In this document: positions 702 through 36,548 of the stretch, piece after piece | Layout of the letters: each line of letters begins with the position of its first letter | Position numbering within the stretch: the stretch's first letter is position 1 | Source: a virus | Length of the DNA stretch: 64,000 bases | IMG/VR virus record: IMGVR_UViG_3300001390_000008 | Location: 29,805 to 93,804 of that record | Direction: 5' to 3' (one strand) | Notes under the pieces: generated by a model | What the model was told of the DNA's origin: nothing | Database searches by the model: none | Seen by the model: only the letters and a program-made list of their open reading frames with translations | Made by a program: the position numbers and the translations under genes

Positions 702-1214
702 TTATTCTCCTATATTTTGTTTTAGATTATTTATAGCTAATTCAAGCCTGTTCATTAATGGTATTGTGCCACACGTTTCATCAACAATATCTGATGATAG
801 AAATGGTGTTGCAGCTTCGATTAGCTCATTAACTAGATCAACATATCTGTTATGAGATTCCTGAGCTTTTAGCAATCCAGCATGACTGCAAAGTTTTTTT
901 AGCCCAGTCTGCTCTGCATCTAAAATCGCATTTGCAAACTGTATGCAAAATTTATCTGCTGCTGGATGATTAAGATGGTGTGCATCATTCAATTTTGCTA
1001 TTTCAAGTATTTTTTCTGTATTCATCTTTTCCAATACTCCAATCACATTATCTATCAGTAGGGTAGCGTCGTTTAGCTCTATCAACCCGTCTCCCTTATC
1101 TATTTCTTCCTTGCGGTCTGCATATAGGACATAATCCCCCTCTACACACTCATCCATTGGGGGGGCCCAGAAGCTATTAGACCTGTATCGTTTTATATAC
1201 CCATCGCCCATCAC
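702..1214 (-). CDS. hypothetical phage protein
   Basis: 170-aa ORF, GGAGG RBS; N-terminal IKRY...YVLYADRKEEI motif shared with other small ORFs in the window. Confidence 0.65.
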   Translation of the reverse strand: MMGDGYIKRYRSNSFWAPPMDECVEGDYVLYADRKEEIDKGDGLIELNDATLLIDNVIGVLEKMNTEKILEIAKLNDAHHLNHPAADKFCIQFANAILDAEQTGLKKLCSHAGLLKAQESHNRYVDLVNELIEAATPFLSSDIVDETCGTIPLMNRLELAINNLKQNIGE

Positions 1215-18030: not shown

Positions 18031-18709
18031 TTTTACTAACCTAATAGCAGATCTTAATATTATATTCTCTTTTTGTATTCTTTCAATATCTACTTCCATC
18101 CCAGCAGCCCACGACATTAAAAGATTAAAAGAATCTTCTACATCGGTGCCTTTTACTGCTTCCTGTACATCAAAAATATGGTCTTGTATACTCATGTTTG
18201 CCACTCCTTGCTAATGTATTAAAAACTGTGTGTGCAGTAATCGGTATCCCAATATACGGAGGCCCACGTATTTATGTCTAAATGCCCCATATAATTACCT
18301 CACCTTTGCTAGCCATATTCAGATATTATTTCTATTGCCCTTTTTCTTAGTAGCTTAAGACTGCTACAGATTATTTCCTCCTCAATATTTCCATTAGCCT
18401 CATACTGCAATTTGTATAGATTTACATCTATTTTAGAAATATCCACTGAATAATAAGAGAAGCCCTCTATATCTAATGTAGCTTTAAATATCGTTATTAA
18501 TGCCATTTGTTTTACTGCCCCGCCTTCTGCATATCTAGATATATTTAGTCAATGTGGTGGATTACTTTATCTGCTATCTCACTGGCAATTTCAGATATAT
18601 ATTCTTTTTCTTCACAGTCGCTTCTCTCAATTGCCTTCATCTTCACTTCCTCGTGTAGTTTTAGCGAACATGTTGCATTACAGTAATGCTCGGTATGTAT
18701 GCGTGGCTG

Positions 18710-19426
18710 TTAGGCATCAGAAATTCTGTCCTTTGCCGTATTAAAATAATCATCATCCAATTCAATACCAATAAAATCTCTACCTGTTTTTTTGCAGGCC
18801 GCGCCAGTTGTCCCAGTCCCCATAAATGGGTCTAAAACAACTGAATCAACTTTGCTAAATAATCTAATTACTTTTTCTGCTAATTCCTGCGGAAATACCG
18901 CGCCATGGTCTTTGCTTACTTTCTTTCCGCGCTTTATACTCCAAACATTTGAAAGCACCCCTCTATCAAACTGTGCAGTTTTAAATGACCTGCTTTCAGG
19001 CGCACTGTTTTGAAGCACAATCAAAACCTCAAATTGGCTATTCATTACGCCTTTCCCTATTGCAGGCTGCGCGTTTAACTTATCCCATATAATAAATTCT
19101 TTTACTTTGCCGCTAAATTCACCAAGCAGTTTAAAAAGAGCAGGTTTGTTACCTGTGAGGAATTGCACATTGTAAAAAACCAAATCAGAAACCCTTAAAC
19201 ACTCATTTAAAACTTTCTTGTTAAACTCAAAATAATCGTCAATAGGCAAATTATCGTCAAAGCTTTTATATTTTGTACTTATCTCTTTAACTATCTGCCT
19301 AGAGCAATATTTACCATTTCTAATCCTGAGATTCATATTGTACGGCGGGCTGGTTAATACAATATCAACACTTCCGCTTGGTATTTCTTTCATTTTTTCT
19401 AAACAATTACCTCTTAATAATTTCAT
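18710..19426 (-). CDS. DNA methyltransferase, N4-cytosine/N6-adenine beta class
   Basis: TSPPY motif IV, HGAVFP, VLDPFMGTGTT motif I, FIGIEL. Confidence 0.92.
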   Translation of the reverse strand: MKLLRGNCLEKMKEIPSGSVDIVLTSPPYNMNLRIRNGKYCSRQIVKEISTKYKSFDDNLPIDDYFEFNKKVLNECLRVSDLVFYNVQFLTGNKPALFKLLGEFSGKVKEFIIWDKLNAQPAIGKGVMNSQFEVLIVLQNSAPESRSFKTAQFDRGVLSNVWSIKRGKKVSKDHGAVFPQELAEKVIRLFSKVDSVVLDPFMGTGTTGAACKKTGRDFIGIELDDDYFNTAKDRISDA

Positions 19427-19431
19427 TTGTT

Positions 19432-19782
19432 TTACTGCCTCGCCTTTTTTGCTATTTCTACTAGCTCATTCCAGTCACGATGGCCTGTGTTACAATGCTT
19501 TATAGCTAAAACTAATAGTCTACCCCGCTCAGGTTCAAGAGAGAATATGTAATTTCTAAGCCCCTGCATTTCTGCGGTCTGTGTTCCGGCCCCGCCGCAG
19601 ATACACTTCTTTCCGCTTACTGGCTTTCCCTGCCCGGCACAAACACTACACATAGCCGACTCTTTAGTACACTCTATGTGTCTCAATGTAAATTCAACCA
19701 TTTCATCCGCACCTAGATTATCCCATCTATTTAACTCATCTGCCTGCTTATTCCAGGCTTCTATAATATCGTTAATTTGCAT
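19432..19782 (-). CDS. hypothetical protein with CxxC..CxC cluster
   Basis: 116-aa ORF; its ATG lies in the degenerate core of an attC-like site. Confidence 0.6.
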   Translation of the reverse strand: MQINDIIEAWNKQADELNRWDNLGADEMVEFTLRHIECTKESAMCSVCAGQGKPVSGKKCICGGAGTQTAEMQGLRNYIFSLEPERGRLLVLAIKHCNTGHRDWNELVEIAKKARQ

Positions 19783-19878
19783 AGTAATTAGCTCCAGCCG
19801 ACGTAGTGTGCGTCAGTATTTTCGTTAAATTTAAGCTCATGTGCCCCGCCCATTACGCGGCTGAGCATGGCGTTATAT
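19779..19878 (+). mobile_element. integron attC-like recombination site (near complete, R'' degenerate)
   Basis: GCATAGT-AATTA-GCTC(C)AGCCG(A)CGTAGTG ... CATTACG-CGGCT-GAGC-ATGGC-GTTATAT; hairpin with two extrahelical bases. Confidence 0.7.
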
Positions 19879-19894
19879 TGCTCGTTCCCCGCTT

Positions 19895-19930
19895 GGACTG
19901 CTTCGCCGCCAGTTAATTCAGTCGTTATAA
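19895..19930 (+). mobile_element. attC-like right half
   Basis: GGACTGCTTCGCCGCCAGTTAATTCAGTC-GTTATAA. Confidence 0.55.
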
Positions 19931-20467
19931 ACCTTTCTGCTCAACAGTAACAATAGTATCGTTATGCCATCCGCCATGCGGTACTAGCAGTATTTCAAGT
20001 TGCTTAAAACCCGCTGTTTTTCCTATCCCACCGCTATTCCATCCGCATGTAATCGCCTTCCCTTTTGGCCTTACAATTCTGCTGATTTCTTTTTTCATAC
20101 TGCCCCAAAAGCTTGCTTGTGTTGTTTGCATATTCACACTCATATTAAGCGACTTATAACATTCACTTACTTGTCTTGGCGAATATGGCGGGTCAAAAAG
20201 AACAGTATCAATACTTTCATCTTCAAACATTTTTAAAAAATCAAGCGCATCTAAATGGTGACATGTATCAAATTCAGTATTCAGGTCATTAGTCACGGTT
20301 GCTAGTTTATTACTATTTGCAAACGGATCAATGCTCTTGCCTGATAAATGCCTTTCTATTAACTCTCCTATAGGTTTTATACTAAATGTGTTTTTATTAG
20401 GCATAGCCCAAACACGGCTTATAACAAGTCGCTCAACCGGACTCGTCTCTTCATTCGCTTCACTCAT
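19925..20467 (-). CDS. putative adenine-specific DNA methyltransferase
   Basis: SIDPFAN, LDALDFL, VLFDPPYS motifs. Confidence 0.75.
   Translation of the reverse strand: MSEANEETSPVERLVISRVWAMPNKNTFSIKPIGELIERHLSGKSIDPFANSNKLATVTNDLNTEFDTCHHLDALDFLKMFEDESIDTVLFDPPYSPRQVSECYKSLNMSVNMQTTQASFWGSMKKEISRIVRPKGKAITCGWNSGGIGKTAGFKQLEILLVPHGGWHNDTIVTVEQKGL
20419..20467 (+). mobile_element. attC-like left half
   Basis: TTATAAC-AAGTC-GCTCAA-CCGGAC...TTCGCTTCACTCA. Confidence 0.65.
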
Positions 20468-20889
20468 TTCACCATGCTCCTTGCTCTCCTGAGTAGTTTA
20501 TCTACGCCCCCAAAAGAAGTGGGGTGCACGAATCTTGGGTTTTCTATTACGGCAATCATCTCACCTATCAGCTTGCCTCGGGCGGCTATTTCTTCCTCGT
20601 GCTCTGCCCTTGCCTCCTCAAACAGTCGATTACCATCAAAGGTTGCCGCTTTGTAGCCTTTTGACCAATCCTCTTCAATCTGCTTCATGTGTTCTTGCAA
20701 CCTTGTAGCTGACTCTTCTGGTTTGTTCAGAGTCTCTACCCCTTTTTGCAGGGCCATATACAAAAAACTATTTATAGACATGTTCCTATGCTCTGCCTCC
20801 CTTTTTATCTCACCATATTCTACTCTGGGCATCCTGATGGCCGCTGTAGAGAGTGCCCGTTTACTTGTTAGAGGTGCTTGTTTAGTCAT
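20464..20889 (-). CDS. Arc-like ribbon-helix-helix DNA-binding protein
   Basis: AIRMPRVEYGEIKREAEHRNMSINSFLYMAL matches the Arc/Mnt pattern. Confidence 0.65.
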   Translation of the reverse strand: MTKQAPLTSKRALSTAAIRMPRVEYGEIKREAEHRNMSINSFLYMALQKGVETLNKPEESATRLQEHMKQIEEDWSKGYKAATFDGNRLFEEARAEHEEEIAARGKLIGEMIAVIENPRFVHPTSFGGVDKLLRRARSMVK

Positions 20890-20908
20890 ATCAATTTCCA
20901 GTGTTGTG

Positions 20909-22955: not shown

Positions 22956-23032
22956 TGGTGGACTAGCAGGGACTCGAACCCCGATAGTATGGATTATGAG
23001 CCCACTGCATTTTCCAATTATGCTACCAGTCC
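22956..23032 (-). tRNA. tRNA with CAT anticodon (Ile2 or Met), CCA encoded
   Basis: GGACTGG/CTAGTCC acceptor, GCAT/ATGC D-stem, GTGGG-CTCATAA-TCCAT, CGGGG-TTCGAGT-CCCTG, A-CCA. Confidence 0.92.
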
Positions 23033-23230: not shown

Positions 23231-26158
23231 TCAATGTCTATCCGTATCACTTCGCTCACCTGCATCACTTCTGCCGTCGTCATGCATATCACTATCTGTC
23301 CCCCCATTTGGCATAACCCACGAAGAGGCCCTACTAAGTAATAAATTATATGCACCACATAAAGAATCGGCTGCATCCTTTGCCCCGATTATACTATGAT
23401 CAACTTTTCCTTCTTTACCTTTATTTTCATCAAATTCTAAAGACAATAATTCTTCCAGTAGTACGGGCTGATTATATAGCAGTATGCGCCCATCATAAAA
23501 GGCATCACGTAATTGGCGGTAAGGGGTGGGGGATCTGTCTACGGATATAAGGCCGGTCTTCATCCCCTGTCTCTTCCATGCTTGCCTGGATTCAACACTA
23601 TTATACCCATCATAACTGACCGCCTTAATAGGATACCCATATGTGCTATATAGTAGCTTTATCCATGAACGTATATTTGCCACATCTACTTCATTACCGT
23701 GGTCTGGCTGAACGGTCATACACATTTCCATGGATACAAGGGGCAGTGCCTCCTGCTCCCCGTCCACCCTCTCTACCCATTGTAGGCCGTCAAACCTAAC
23801 CATACATATCCCTGTTCTATCTTGTGTAGAGCTTAAATCAATATGTACATATCTGGGTTTACCTGGATTACTACAAAAATGCCCCTTAATAGGTAGAGGT
23901 AGGCCTTGGTGCCTTAGTATTATGTTATCTTCCGGTAAGAAGGACTTTAAGCCCGCTTCTTCGCCTTTTGCCACACATTGCATAACCTTCTGGGGCTGCC
24001 TTATAAAAGGCGATATAGCGTTCGTAGAGAGGCCGGATATATCCCGTAGTGCTTTGGTGGGGTTTTTAACGAATTGCTCTCTGTACTCCACGGGCACCTG
24101 TATAACGCGGCCCCCAATAGCCTTCTCATTATCCCCCATAACACGCACAGACATAGCTGCATCACTACCAATAAACAAGTTAAACTTATCCCCACAAAAC
24201 CTGTTCTGCGGAACTACTTCATATTGAGCATACCCGAACACAAAAGTAGTGCTTATGTGCTCCCTGCGTACAATCTCTTCTAAGCGATCGGTGTAGTCCC
24301 CCTTGTACCTTGTAGAAGATGAGCAGATAATCATCCCCACCTGTGGGCCTGGCAGGGTAAACCGGCTTTTACGACGTGTGCTAAGGGCATCATGTATAGC
24401 TTCTGCCTGATCATACTTAGATGATCTGCCCATACTGACGCGTACCTTCTTTGATCTCTCAATAACACTCATGAAATTTACTTCATCTATTAGAGCAAAA
24501 ATCATAGCTTCGCCTAATGCCGCATCATCATCTGCCCCGCCTGGAACCACACGAATGTTTTGTTCTACAAAATACATTTCAGAATCTAATAGTTTATCGG
24601 GCCTCATGTTCTTGCGAAACCACGGCATAGTCTCTATATACTTTCGTAGGGGGGCATAAACTACTTTCTTGGTAACGTGTGGTTTTGCCGCTTGAATAAT
24701 AAATAGAATAGAAGTAGCAGAGGGTAGGCCCCAATAGGTCTGGGGGGTTTTCATGCACCCTAATATATGCAAATGATAGGCTATTGTAATTTTAGCTAAT
24801 TCCGTGTTGTGTGTGACAGTAAAATCGCCCAGCAAATATCTATGATCCCCCCCAATTACAACCCCATAATAATTACCCTTTCCTATAGGCTCTACCTTAA
24901 ACCCTGTTACAAGTACATCTTTTTTCTGCCCCCTTACCGGTGCCTTTTTATTAATTGATAATGTAGGTATTAGATGACAATCGCCACTTATAAATACACG
25001 ATAATAGATGCCAGTAAATCCTGTTGATTTTATACCTTTAATTACCTCTTTCTTATATGCAGCGAACCCTAATGATCTGCATAAATAAACAGCCTGATCT
25101 GCAAAGCATTCATCCTTAGCTATAAAATCAAACCCACCACATGATAGGCGGCCACCCCCGTCTAATATCCCGGCTAATAATTGTAATCTATTTTTCCTGC
25201 TGTTTATTAAATACTCTTTTGGTATCCTTCTTCTATGTAGATAATCCGTTAATGACTCTCTTATATCGGCAAATCCCAAAAGGCTAATATCCCATGCACC
25301 TCTGTCGTAGTTTACCTGTCCTATCTGTACATGCTTCTTTACCCGCTCTAGGCAAAGTAATTTATTACCCCCCAAAGACAGAGCACTACGGTATTTACAA
25401 CCATCCGCTAAATACAGACCTATGGTGTAAGGGTCAAATACTTTAATCTCCAGGAACTCTACGCCTACACGATATTGTTTATGCAAGTGTTTAAATGTCT
25501 TTGATTTATTCAAATATTCTTTTACTGTAATATTTACTATATCCCCTGCATACCTGTCCCCACTTCTTATTTTAGTACGTTTAAGGCTCAGTATATGATC
25601 TGCATTACATGTCCATGATTCCCCTTTAACAGGGGTAATACGGTACATATCGCCATAACTTTCATTAGCTTGTAATACTGGTTGCGGGTTTGACTCCGGC
25701 CCCATTAAAACATCGCCCTTGTTTATATTCTGGGATAGCTTTATACCCCCATCATATAATAGTACAGGGACGTCCACCCCTAAGCACTTTCCGGTACCTG
25801 TTGCGCGAGAGAATATAGCCTGGTCATAATGTTTATCCGCGCCTTTCCACCAATGGCTATTAAGCTCAATAACCGCCTCTCTTACTTTAGGCCATAGTTT
25901 TAGATCTGTGGAGCCCATAAACTGATCAGAATCTATAAATTCTTCTATGGATACGGGGGGCTGTTTTAAGTGTTCTATGAAATTTAAAAAGTTATGGTTA
26001 TTATGCATTGCTGCTTGCTTTATTGCATGAACATAAAATTCAGCAAACATTTTATTATTTAATGTACTAACAGAGGCCTCGGCAGCATCTATCATTAACT
26101 GCGCTTTTCTTGTCAGATTACCGCTCTGGGTAGCCAACTTTCTTTTACGTCTAGTCAC
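23231..26158 (-). CDS. terL: terminase large subunit, intein-containing
   Basis: Walker A ATGTGK|T split by an intein, Walker B ALIDE, C-terminal nuclease YVHIDLS...KVDH...KDAADS. Confidence 0.88.
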   Translation of the reverse strand: MTRRKRKLATQSGNLTRKAQLMIDAAEASVSTLNNKMFAEFYVHAIKQAAMHNNHNFLNFIEHLKQPPVSIEEFIDSDQFMGSTDLKLWPKVREAVIELNSHWWKGADKHYDQAIFSRATGTGKCLGVDVPVLLYDGGIKLSQNINKGDVLMGPESNPQPVLQANESYGDMYRITPVKGESWTCNADHILSLKRTKIRSGDRYAGDIVNITVKEYLNKSKTFKHLHKQYRVGVEFLEIKVFDPYTIGLYLADGCKYRSALSLGGNKLLCLERVKKHVQIGQVNYDRGAWDISLLGFADIRESLTDYLHRRRIPKEYLINSRKNRLQLLAGILDGGGRLSCGGFDFIAKDECFADQAVYLCRSLGFAAYKKEVIKGIKSTGFTGIYYRVFISGDCHLIPTLSINKKAPVRGQKKDVLVTGFKVEPIGKGNYYGVVIGGDHRYLLGDFTVTHNTELAKITIAYHLHILGCMKTPQTYWGLPSATSILFIIQAAKPHVTKKVVYAPLRKYIETMPWFRKNMRPDKLLDSEMYFVEQNIRVVPGGADDDAALGEAMIFALIDEVNFMSVIERSKKVRVSMGRSSKYDQAEAIHDALSTRRKSRFTLPGPQVGMIICSSSTRYKGDYTDRLEEIVRREHISTTFVFGYAQYEVVPQNRFCGDKFNLFIGSDAAMSVRVMGDNEKAIGGRVIQVPVEYREQFVKNPTKALRDISGLSTNAISPFIRQPQKVMQCVAKGEEAGLKSFLPEDNIILRHQGLPLPIKGHFCSNPGKPRYVHIDLSSTQDRTGICMVRFDGLQWVERVDGEQEALPLVSMEMCMTVQPDHGNEVDVANIRSWIKLLYSTYGYPIKAVSYDGYNSVESRQAWKRQGMKTGLISVDRSPTPYRQLRDAFYDGRILLYNQPVLLEELLSLEFDENKGKEGKVDHSIIGAKDAADSLCGAYNLLLSRASSWVMPNGGTDSDMHDDGRSDAGERSDTDRH
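24806..25786 (-). mobile_element. intein (327 aa) with LAGLIDADG-type endonuclease
   Basis: CLG... start, CNADHIL block B, GLYLADG and LAGILDGGG, ...VTHN end, +1 Thr. Confidence 0.92.
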
Positions 26159-29094: not shown

Positions 29095-29782
29095 ATATTA
29101 CCCATTACACTTATTATTTATTACATGTCATAAATAATAGAGGCCTCACGACTAGCGCACATTTTAAGTTTATTTAATATCTTCAACTCTCTTGAGTGGT
29201 ATTTAATATCAATATCTATTTTACTAACTTCTTCAGCCAACTTAACTAATCTGTTAAGCAGCTTAGTTTTATGATAAATCAATACATTAATTTCATTAAA
29301 TTTAATTTTGCGTTCAATACTACCCATGTTTGCCAGCTCTTCAATAAAGACTTTTTCATTAAACATTACTACCCCCTTATTATTTCCGTTTTACCCTAAC
29401 CGCATTCACTGATATTCAGTCTTGGTGGGTCTCGGTATTGCTATGATAGTAAGACCCCTCTCGCGGAGAAGACTATATAGATCCACTGCACTACTACTAT
29501 ACTTACCATTCTGCTTTTCTATCCAGTCTACCTGATCCTGGTATAAATAGATGGCAGTAGGTCTAGGGACAACTTTCAAATATTTGTAAATCAGGCCAAA
29601 AATATCACCCATTTTTGGGGGCGGATCACGAAAAGGGTATTTATGGTATGTTACCCTGGTCTTTCCTATTGTCAGCATATTGTAATGATAATAACACATA
29701 GTTTACTCCCTCTATTGATGTAAATAATACTATAGATATCAACTACACAAAGCCTAACTTTTTACTTAAGTACGACATTCTC

Positions 29783-30712
29783 TTAATCCTTCCAAGCAAA
29801 GCACACACTGCACATCTCACAACTCACAGCCCGCTTATCCCCCTTTGTACGACATGCTTTATAGGGTAATTTACCTCCCTCTCTGGCTATTTTTAACTCC
29901 ATTGCTTCCTCTTTATAATCCTCTATTCTACACAAATATTCTTGAGGATCTAGGACAAATTCCTTGAAAGGTGATTTACCGAATACATAACTCTTAGTAA
30001 CATAAAATACGGACACTTGTTGGTGTATTGCATACCCCATTTCTTTTGCCAGCCACCAGTAAAATATAATCTGTAATATATGCGCGGGCAATGGTGCAGT
30101 TAATGCCTCCCACGCTTCATGCTTTATAGACTTGATTTCACTAAGATATAGCAGACCGTTTATCAGATGGGCTAGATCAACCGCCCCACTTATCATGTAC
30201 TCGTCATTTGTTAATAGTAGTTCTTCATACTTGGTAGGAAGCTCTCCACATTTAGAGCAGGTTGCTGGCCCTTTCTTTGTGGACATAGCCTTATTGTATG
30301 TCCCTACTACCTCTGTCCCCCCACAATAGCACTGCCATCTACCATATATTTCCTCTGGGTTATTTCTTATTGCTTTAGCCTTAACATAGTCATGTATGGC
30401 ATTACCTATAGCGAAAGTAACCCCAGTATTATCGTAGAGTGCCTCACCGTGTAAATCTACCTTTGTAACGTATGACAAGGCAACCATACGCATACACTTA
30501 CCTATAATATCAGATACATGGGTATACTCACCGTACCTAAACCCATTCATCTTAAATACCCCAGATAGCCTGCTTATAAGCACCTCTGGATCATCCATGG
30601 GTAGTATTATCCCATCGGTTTCACACCCTTCTTTATCCCGTCTATTACGGCGTTTAAGCATCCTGGATACACTAACCCCTCCCGAACTTACCCTTGGTAT
30701 TCTTCTAGCCAC
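29783..30712 (-). CDS. PD-(D/E)XK (Cas4/RecB-like) exonuclease
   Basis: GNAIH, SGAVD, EIKS, Q...Y and C-terminal Cys cluster. Confidence 0.75.
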   Translation of the reverse strand: MARRIPRVSSGGVSVSRMLKRRNRRDKEGCETDGIILPMDDPEVLISRLSGVFKMNGFRYGEYTHVSDIIGKCMRMVALSYVTKVDLHGEALYDNTGVTFAIGNAIHDYVKAKAIRNNPEEIYGRWQCYCGGTEVVGTYNKAMSTKKGPATCSKCGELPTKYEELLLTNDEYMISGAVDLAHLINGLLYLSEIKSIKHEAWEALTAPLPAHILQIIFYWWLAKEMGYAIHQQVSVFYVTKSYVFGKSPFKEFVLDPQEYLCRIEDYKEEAMELKIAREGGKLPYKACRTKGDKRAVSCEMCSVCFAWKD

Positions 30713-35576: not shown

Positions 35577-36548
35577 TTAACGACTCCTACGGGAGCGCCT
35601 ACTACTGCGTTCACCCCCAGAATCACGATCTTTCTTACTTGCTTCCCGTCCTGTTGCTTTACGACTACTTGATGAATCTCCCCCACTATTGCGCTTACCT
35701 GAACTAGAAGACTTTTTCTCTTTCCCTCGCCCTTTACGCCTTTTATTGGAACTACTACTATCATCGTCTTTATCCCATGGTTCATCATCGCCACCGTCAC
35801 CCCAGCTATCTTTATCCAGGTCACGATCCTGTTGTTTTTTAGAACCCATAGGTGGATCTACCCCCAACATAGCCCGGATACTATCTGCATCTGGTTTTTC
35901 AAAAATATCGGCATAAACAAAAGGCTCGCCCATATTTTCTACGTGTTCTTTATTCTCACGATCCTCCCATGTGCGAATAAATTTGCTCATCAATTTCTTC
36001 TCTTTTACCCACTCAAGTAATTCCATATCATTACCAATAGCAGCATCCTTTGGCCCATCACGACTAGTCTGGAATAAGGCACCACGTAAAGACCCTTCAC
36101 GGCTCATAAGTCTGTCAAACTTCTTTTGCTGGCTCTGCTTAACTGCCATCAATTTACGGCTGGCGTTATGCTTAACCCCATTTTTATCCTTAAAGGGGGT
36201 CAGGTCTATTACGGAAAGAAATAATACATAGGGGGATTCCCCATACTCCGTGCAAGCTGCACAATCTTCAGTCTCCTTTGGGCAGGTAACATGGTTAGTG
36301 AACTTACCAGTACGCGGGTCGGGGAGCGTATGTTCGTAGAGGTAACAATCAGGGGCATCATCAAGTATAATAAACTCTTTAGTCTCTCCTACAGGAACAA
36401 AGAACCTGAATATTCTTCCTTTACTTGCCTGCTCCCTGCGTATTTTAGATTTTACCCTCTCATCTGCCGCACGATTTCTGCCCTCTTTACCGCTATGAAT
36501 AAAAGACCTGTTACCACCACTTGCTACTCTTTGTTTTTTATCACCCAT
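35577..36548 (-). CDS. putative single-stranded DNA-binding protein
   Basis: H..C..C..C Zn motif, predicted OB-like core, charged low-complexity tail, position in replication block. Confidence 0.6.
   Translation of the reverse strand: MGDKKQRVASGGNRSFIHSGKEGRNRAADERVKSKIRREQASKGRIFRFFVPVGETKEFIILDDAPDCYLYEHTLPDPRTGKFTNHVTCPKETEDCAACTEYGESPYVLFLSVIDLTPFKDKNGVKHNASRKLMAVKQSQQKKFDRLMSREGSLRGALFQTSRDGPKDAAIGNDMELLEWVKEKKLMSKFIRTWEDRENKEHVENMGEPFVYADIFEKPDADSIRAMLGVDPPMGSKKQQDRDLDKDSWGDGGDDEPWDKDDDSSSSNKRRKGRGKEKKSSSSGKRNSGGDSSSSRKATGREASKKDRDSGGERSSRRSRRSR

Follow-up and report, generated by a model that had tools for sequence, protein, structure and literature searches.

Integron components have been found in phages before. 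Qi et al. (2023; Qi, Rajabal, Ghaly, Tetu and Gillings, Front Microbiol, PMC9892861) detected them in 21 of 10,705 phage genomes. Among the finds were clusters of attC sites lacking an integrase (CALINs) in virulent phages, and five methyltransferase cassettes; IntI1 recombined five of the six phage attC sites tested, and it was argued that the methyltransferases shield phage DNA from restriction. The association of phage attC sites with methyltransferase cassettes is, therefore, already known. By the rule used in IntegronFinder and by Qi et al., it takes two or more attC sites to make a CALIN. Loot et al. (bioRxiv 10.1101/2022.09.11.507474) have described isolated attC sites that occur singly (SALINs), together with insertion at attG sites.

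The locus examined here belongs to an uncultured phage known from a 93.8-kb IMG/VR virus record with an estimated completeness of 98%. The window, i.e. the whole stretch of 64,000 nucleotides that was analysed, comprises bases 29805-93804 of this record. Its genes lie nearly all on the minus strand, and its GC content is about 40%. Distant kin (38-47% amino-acid identity) are 93-kb Pseudomonas siphophages of the PaMx31/SM1 type. A megablast search for close relatives gave no match in the phage collection, and neither the 116-aa protein described below nor the large terminase had relatives that could be found in IMG/VR. The terminase (window 23231-26158, minus strand) is 975 aa long; its residues 129-195 match Hom_end-associated Hint (intein), and its PaMx31-type relatives align to it in two pieces, with 65% covered. 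A tRNA-Met (CAT) gene is situated just downstream of the terminase gene, at 22956-23032 on the minus strand.

In this genome, positions 18709-20443 of the window are likely to be an eroded remnant of integron cassettes, acquired by a virulent-type phage lineage, in which attC sequence has since been reused for expression signals. The genes concerned, and their upstream neighbour, are as follows.

20464-20889, minus strand: 141-aa open reading frame, upstream neighbour of the 180-aa methyltransferase gene
19925-20467, minus strand: 180-aa DNA methyltransferase with a DPPY motif (phrog_11619, E 3.6e-54)
19783-19924: gap of 142 nt between the 180-aa methyltransferase gene and the 116-aa reading frame
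19432-19782, minus strand: 116-aa open reading frame with CxxCxGxG zinc-finger-like motifs
18710-19426, minus strand: 238-aa N6/N4 DNA methyltransferase (PF01555 at 3.7e-37; phrog_67)

The cargo would thus have consisted of a pair of orphan DNA methyltransferases plus one small zinc-finger protein. The family of the 180-aa methyltransferase is widespread in phages, and the 238-aa enzyme probably belongs to the same captured block. The 116-aa protein carries CxxCxGxG and CxCxGxG motifs that resemble the cysteine-rich zinc finger of DnaJ. Word-index searches returned no close relative of it; its core (residues 42-88) is common to 325 distant relatives of many lengths, which indicates that the protein is real. 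The attC features occupy the gap and both ends of the 180-aa methyltransferase gene. Within the gap, a 50-codon frame (19788-19940, minus strand) was considered as a coding sequence and rejected: it has no ATG, GTG or TTG before an ATG at 19868, and it matches no protein family.

The contig is metagenomic and the GC content of the gap (51%) is above that of its flanks (38%), as might be expected if bacterial integron DNA had been joined to phage DNA during assembly. Such a chimera is scarcely credible. The coding GC of the three genes is 38%, in keeping with that of the phage; the genes point in the same direction as the phage genes on either side, and an ATGA overlap at 20464-20467 couples the 180-aa methyltransferase translationally to the 141-aa reading frame upstream. 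Moreover, the stretch lies within one 37-kb Logan contig whose depth is uniform, at about 730x, and it is found again in a second run. Across the Logan contigs of the two runs, window positions 18600-20900 are carried at about 730-875x word depth. One of these runs is labelled as a hydrothermal vent metagenome; the second, from a different study, is labelled only 'metagenome'. These two runs are probably the source of the phage DNA, and the phage is abundant in these probable source samples. Two further runs hold only an identical 168-nt contig.

The central feature of the locus is a full-length attC-like site, recognised by covariance models, by its fold and by the identity of its L boxes. 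It is made up of the following elements.

19779-19878, plus (top) strand: attC#1, the full-length site
19779-19785, plus strand: R'' box GCATAGT, degenerate
19786-19790, plus strand: spacer AATTA
19791-19803, plus strand: L'' box GCTCCAGCCGACG
between L'' and L': variable loop of about 50-52 nt
19851-19866, plus strand: 3' arm CATTACGCGGCTGAGC
19857-19866, plus strand: L' box GCGGCTGAGC
19867-19871, plus strand: spacer ATGGC
19872-19878, plus strand: R' box GTTATAT

The 5' arm reads GCTC(C)AGCCG(A)CGTAGTG from 19791. In the minimum-free-energy DNA fold, 19791-19808 pairs with 19851-19866, and the covariance-model alignment pairs every position of the L box. The plus strand leaves a C and an A unpaired, in the order 3 bp, C, 6 bp, A; they are the counterparts of the extrahelical G and T that attC sites have on the bottom strand. 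This is the bulge pattern of aadA-type attC sites (the aadA reference sequence was verified against about 2,500 plasmids) and of the model consensus, <<<-<<<<<<-<. The R' box contains the GTT and agrees with the consensus GTTRRRY at six of seven positions; R' boxes beginning with GTTAT exist in real sites, GTTATGC being found in 7 of 123 reference attC sites. Both spacers are 5 nt long, and the total length of 100 nt falls within the reference range of 55-141.

The R'' box is the one element that departs from the pattern. The consensus is RYYYAAC with a conserved AAC, which is present in 119 of the 123 reference sites; attC#1 has GCATAGT. As both substitutions are transitions, G·T wobbles remain in the top strand. 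IntI recombines the bottom strand. In the folded bottom strand of attC#1, the two pairs beside the AA|C cleavage point are A·C and C·A mismatches. Since the near-invariant AAC is missing, the site is probably inactive and, judged from its sequence, probably inert or very weak for IntI today. An earlier note, made from the letters of this DNA, had reported the hairpin with its unpaired C and A as well as the degenerate R''; all the strings that it quoted are in place and the predicted fold is as it described.

In terms of hairpin energy, attC#1 is strong; its fold has a z-score of -1.9 to -3.2 and ranks among 100-nt windows of the genome in the top 0.25% (minus strand) or the top 2% (plus strand). 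Folding energy cannot decide the matter by itself, however, as the genome has other hairpins of this strength. The test was, therefore, made with models derived from real attC sites of independent origin. From bacterial genomes, 80 loci with IntI1 or relatives 73-100% identical to it were taken, and attC sites were pulled from the cassette side of each locus by a structural grammar. Alignment of 28 of these gave model R1, which recovered 123 sites in 61 loci at 20-73 bits, nearly every one of them on the strand and the side of intI where cassette sites are expected. Model R2 was rebuilt from these 123 sites. Both are home-made models, distinct from attC_4.cm of IntegronFinder, and the E-values that they give are approximate. 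Genuine attC sites that had no part in the training obtain 20-57 bits.

With filters off, 19779-19878 (plus strand) matches R1 at 24.8 bits (E 0.001) and R2 at 26.4 bits (E 5e-4), in each case over the full model length. It is the sole match of either model above background in the 93.8-kb genome, and it is found on one strand only. The next best match in the window scores 13.8 bits, and the remaining 30 kb of the genome stays at or below 10 bits. That 13.8-bit match (36137-36171, plus strand; GCTTAAC...GTTATGC) and a second one at 29240-29259 are short GCTTAAC...GTTA palindromes without an L box, and were treated as chance. Also with filters off, about 260 kb of other phage DNA gave no more than 13.8 bits, and about 115 kb of phage contigs, comprising carriers of methyltransferase homologues and others, no more than 12.8 bits; with default filters, 630 kb of other phage contigs with homologues of the same methyltransferase gave no match. 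With these home-made models, the covariance-model check that the earlier note had proposed thus came out in favour of the site, which reaches 26 bits while the background does not exceed 14 bits.

The L boxes provide a further line of evidence. The L'' and L' strings of attC#1 are identical to those of two real attC sites (L075:983-1054 and L063:3506-3577); GCTCCAGCCGAC and CGGCTGAGC recur letter for letter as L boxes in arrays of Methyloversatilis and Thauera.

An ordinary intergenic hairpin without integron ancestry, for instance an RNA-processing site or a translational operator in which the 116-aa gene has its GGAG hidden, would nevertheless explain why the ribosome-binding site of the downstream gene lies in the hairpin, and it would suit both the non-unique folding energy and the finding that a single site passes the models. 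The whole 166-nt intergenic RNA, moreover, folds no better than shuffled sequences (z +0.2). Against this, the full-length model match lies about 12 bits over all background, the bulges are strand-specific and at canonical positions, and the L boxes share an exact 12-mer and an exact 9-mer with real attC sites. No promoter-like or terminator-like site is found on the coding strand in the gap, and the region belongs to no Rfam family, the only match being a chance CRISPR-DR (E 7.7). Two further observations, set out below, also speak against chance resemblance: the best half-site matches of the genome cluster alongside attC#1, and independent attC sites flank homologous methyltransferase genes in other contigs. 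Taken together, these points make an origin by chance improbable.

Half-sites were sought with weight matrices for left and right halves, derived from the reference alignment, with which both strands of the whole genome were scanned. Together with a possible lone R' box, the elements are as follows.

20419-20443, plus strand: left half of attC#3, R''-spacer-L'', TTATAAC-AAGTC-GCTCAACCGGACT (weight matrix 20.1 bits)
19908-19930, plus strand: right half of attC#2, L'-spacer-R', GCCAGTTAAT-TCAGTC-GTTATAA (weight matrix 11.1 bits)
18709-18715, plus strand: GTTAGGC, possible lone R' relic or left junction (stop-codon context)

The left half of attC#3 (TTATAAC-AAGTC-GCTCAACCGGAC) is the top left-half match of the genome, and about 1% of shuffled genomes reach its 20.1 bits. 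The left half of attC#1 (19779-19803) ranks second at 16.7 bits, and the third-best match scores 7.4 bits; the two best are on the same strand, 640 nt apart. The 12-mer in the L'' box of attC#3 is identical to that of four real attC sites. This left half, for which no corresponding right half was found, sits inside a 15-codon N-terminal extension of the 180-aa methyltransferase. Homologues align to the enzyme only from residues 14-16 onward, so the extension is peculiar to this lineage.

The right half of attC#2 is the best right-half match on the plus strand. It is not significant by itself, since its 11.1 bits lie below the mean maximum of shuffled sequences (13.1), and 19879-19907 contains nothing that can be recognised as a left half. 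Support for its position comes from a related contig (L165, discussed below), which has a full attC site there that ends in the same GTTATAA. Of the two half-sites proposed in the earlier note, the left one at 20419 is thus borne out as the best in the genome, while the right one ending in GTTATAA owes its standing to the complete site at the same position in the related contig rather than to its own score. Read antisense, the TTA in the R' box of attC#2 is the TAA with which the 180-aa methyltransferase gene stops.

The same relationship is seen at 18709, where the TTA of GTTAGGC is the antisense stop codon of the 238-aa methyltransferase gene. Among 60 long minus-strand frames in the window, this gene is the only one with a RYYTAAC stop-codon context. 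The right-half matrix gives -5 on the flank of 18709, and no attC is recognisable upstream of it; the evidence that 18709-18715 is a lone R' relic or a left junction is weak. The matches of attC#1, attC#2 and attC#3 are all on the plus strand within 665 nt, and these sites, like the possible lone R' box, have their top strand on the plus strand, antisense to the genes.

Contigs that carry relatives of the 180-aa methyltransferase show comparable arrangements. Those closest to it in metagenomes have attC sites of 18.6-45 bits beside the gene; phage homologues at a greater distance have no attC. On contig L166, the methyltransferase is 82% identical, and an attC site stands on either side of the gene and antisense to it, one of 37 and one of 30 bits. 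The TAA that ends the gene falls within the R' box (G-TTA-GGT), and its ATG is 30 nt from R''. L166 is clearly a phage contig, encoding a replication initiator, NinB, PAPS reductase, an HNH endonuclease and further methyltransferases; relatives of its flanks are too distant for breakpoints to be compared (43-68% identity) and show neither synteny nor attC. On L165, the methyltransferase is 85% identical, and a complete antisense attC of 18.6 bits stands where the window has the right half only. The terminal GTTATAA of this site and the 15 bases that follow it are both as in the window, and the N-terminal extension of the enzyme retains a left half, TTATAAC-AAAAC-GGTCAAGCGGAAC. The similarity of the L boxes between L165 and the window could reflect a shared consensus and not shared descent.

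Of the remaining contigs, L168 has an attC of 27.5 bits, and L169 is an array-like contig of 1.6 kb (1-1567) with attC sites of 45, 33 and 22 bits. These are located at 54-158, 673-730 and 1115-1237 (inverted), and a fourth begins at 1541. The attC adjoining the methyltransferase gene of L169 is sense-oriented. A 78-aa CxxCxGxG protein (749-985) follows the methyltransferase cassette, as in the gene order of the window. The same 23 nt (CTAATCAGCCGCTTAACTCTGAG) occur at both ends of L169, which means that the contig is circular or else has repeated attC sites as its boundaries. On L171, methyltransferases like the 238-aa and the 180-aa enzymes alternate between attC-like elements of the form TCATAAC...GTTATAT (212-272 and 790-852, minus strand), and both stop codons lie in G-TTA-TAT. 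These elements were recognised by eye. Their L boxes are unlike the class-1-type consensus and the home-made models give them at most 13 bits, so they may represent another type of attC.

One clear though damaged attC, with fragments of others around the methyltransferase genes, indicates that these genes are probably cassette-derived, i.e. that they arrived as integron gene cassettes. What counts against this is that only one site passes the models, that its R'' box has no AAC, and that the right half and the relic at 18709 are weak. The antisense orientation of all three genes is also atypical for integron cassettes. The most likely reading is that of a cassette array that has decayed within a phage genome, namely a SALIN with remnants of neighbouring sites. 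There is one full attC with an adjacent coding sequence and no other full att site or intI nearby, which is the pattern of a SALIN; a CALIN, which likewise lacks intI, would have two or more attC sites within 3-4 kb, and the locus has one full site, halves and a possible lone R'. The half-sites suggest that the site was once more than a single one. The decaying array proposed in the earlier note on the basis of integron-type attC features is supported, and the same methyltransferase is found between well-scoring attC sites elsewhere, including on a phage contig.

A history in three steps may be proposed. In the first, IntI of an integron-bearing host would have recombined cassette DNA into the phage genome, possibly by insertion at a secondary (attG-type) G|TT site. 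The G|TTAGGC at 18709, with its stop codon and without an upstream attC, fits an IntI-catalysed insertion of this kind. Alternatively, illegitimate recombination may have brought in part of a cassette array; this route is equally possible, and the evidence for attG is thin. In the second step, the methyltransferases would have been retained because they protect phage DNA from restriction by the host, a role that is plausible from their family membership. In the third, recombination would no longer have been selected and the attC sites would have decayed, parts of them being taken over as expression signals. The R' boxes (antisense G-TTA) would have come to provide the TAA stops of both methyltransferase genes, the R'' box of attC#1 the ATG (19782-19780) of the 116-aa gene, and its L'' box the GGAG ribosome-binding site (19795-19792), while the left half of attC#3 would have become the N-terminal extension of the 180-aa methyltransferase. 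With the ATG in R'' and the GGAG in L'', the hairpin is predicted to be able to damp translation of the 116-aa gene.

It is also conceivable that the attC sites still work, and that a host integron integrase excises and inserts cassettes at 19779-19878 and its neighbours in an active exchange of accessory genes. The L box, extrahelical bases, spacers and R' box of attC#1 are all intact, IntI tolerates much sequence variation, and phage attC sites that score far lower with the home-made model are known to work. In Polaribacter phage P12002L (L253), for instance, the best R2 match has only 13.5 bits and lies between methyltransferase genes at a CALIN of Qi et al. (PMC9892861); it may or may not be one of the six sites of which IntI1 recombined five. 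This present-day activity is, however, unlikely. The AAC that nearly all reference sites possess is absent and the bottom-strand pairs beside the cleavage point are mismatched; the genome offers no second complete site as a recombination partner, and attC#1 has come to supply a gene with its start codon and its ribosome-binding site. Neither the window nor the whole 93.8-kb genome encodes an integron integrase, in agreement with the earlier note, or any other tyrosine recombinase. Alternative joints, i.e. excision or presence-absence variants at the attC sites, are likewise missing from the Logan contigs of the two source runs, although Logan contigs drop rare variants. The present-day shuffling envisaged in the earlier note is thus not upheld: the sole full site has lost the AAC of R'', the others are halves, and no excision is seen in reads or contigs.

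A wider suggestion, which is offered only tentatively, concerns the methyltransferase itself. The eroded cassettes of the window might belong to an inverted, phage-adapted family of DNA-methyltransferase cassettes that moves between unrelated phages (and integron arrays) by means of host IntI. The gene would be antisense to its attC, with the R' box giving the TAA stop (as in the window, L165, L166 and L171) and the R''/L'' side giving start or ribosome-binding signals; expression would therefore depend on phage read-through and not on the integron Pc promoter. Such a recurrent inverted cassette, with its stop codon in the R' box and common to several phage and metagenome contigs, may be new.

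Known attC sites of the class 1 or betaproteobacterial type (aadA; Methyloversatilis, Thauera and Dechloromonas arrays) are among the closest counterparts of the site in the window. Architecture and bulge spacing are the same, and L'' GCTCCAGCCGAC, L'' GCTCAACCGGAC and L' CGGCTGAGC are identical to real sites. The window differs in having AGT in place of AAC in R'', AT-rich R boxes (GTTATAT, GTTATAA, TTATAAC), a 3' spacer of 5 instead of 6 nt in attC#1, and adjacent genes that are antisense to the site.

The locus resembles a SALIN in that it has one attC, a coding sequence associated with it, and no integrase in the neighbourhood. Recombination of attC with attG would leave a left-end junction of the G|TTAGGC type without an upstream attC, as seen at 18709; the right junction, in contrast, is not preserved. 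The work of Loot et al. concerns bacterial chromosomes, whereas the present locus is in a phage. It also holds remnants of additional sites; the captured DNA may therefore have been part of an array and not one cassette.

The phage CALINs of Qi et al. are likewise among the closest counterparts. In both cases, attC sites without an integrase occur in virulent-type phages together with orphan DNA methyltransferase cassettes, including the N6_N4_Mtase family; the P12002L match mentioned above (30005-30059, plus strand) is, as in the window, antisense between two minus-strand methyltransferase genes. The window departs from these CALINs in that it has one full site with a broken R'', the rest being halves, and so falls short of the two-site rule; its attC sequence has been absorbed into start, stop and ribosome-binding signals, and its phage is an uncultured 94-kb vent phage. 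A hydrothermal-vent phage thus joins the short list of phages with integron recombination sites. It illustrates what may become of attC sites after capture, namely erosion and reuse as stop, start and ribosome-binding signals while the anti-restriction methyltransferase cargo is kept. The phage-integron route of gene exchange advanced in the earlier note is not new, having been reported by Qi et al. (PMC9892861). The meaning proposed for their CALINs and for this locus is the same, that phages tap the integron cassette pool, and the occurrence of one methyltransferase between good attC sites both in another phage contig and in an array-like contig adds concrete material on whether phages and integrons share a cassette pool.
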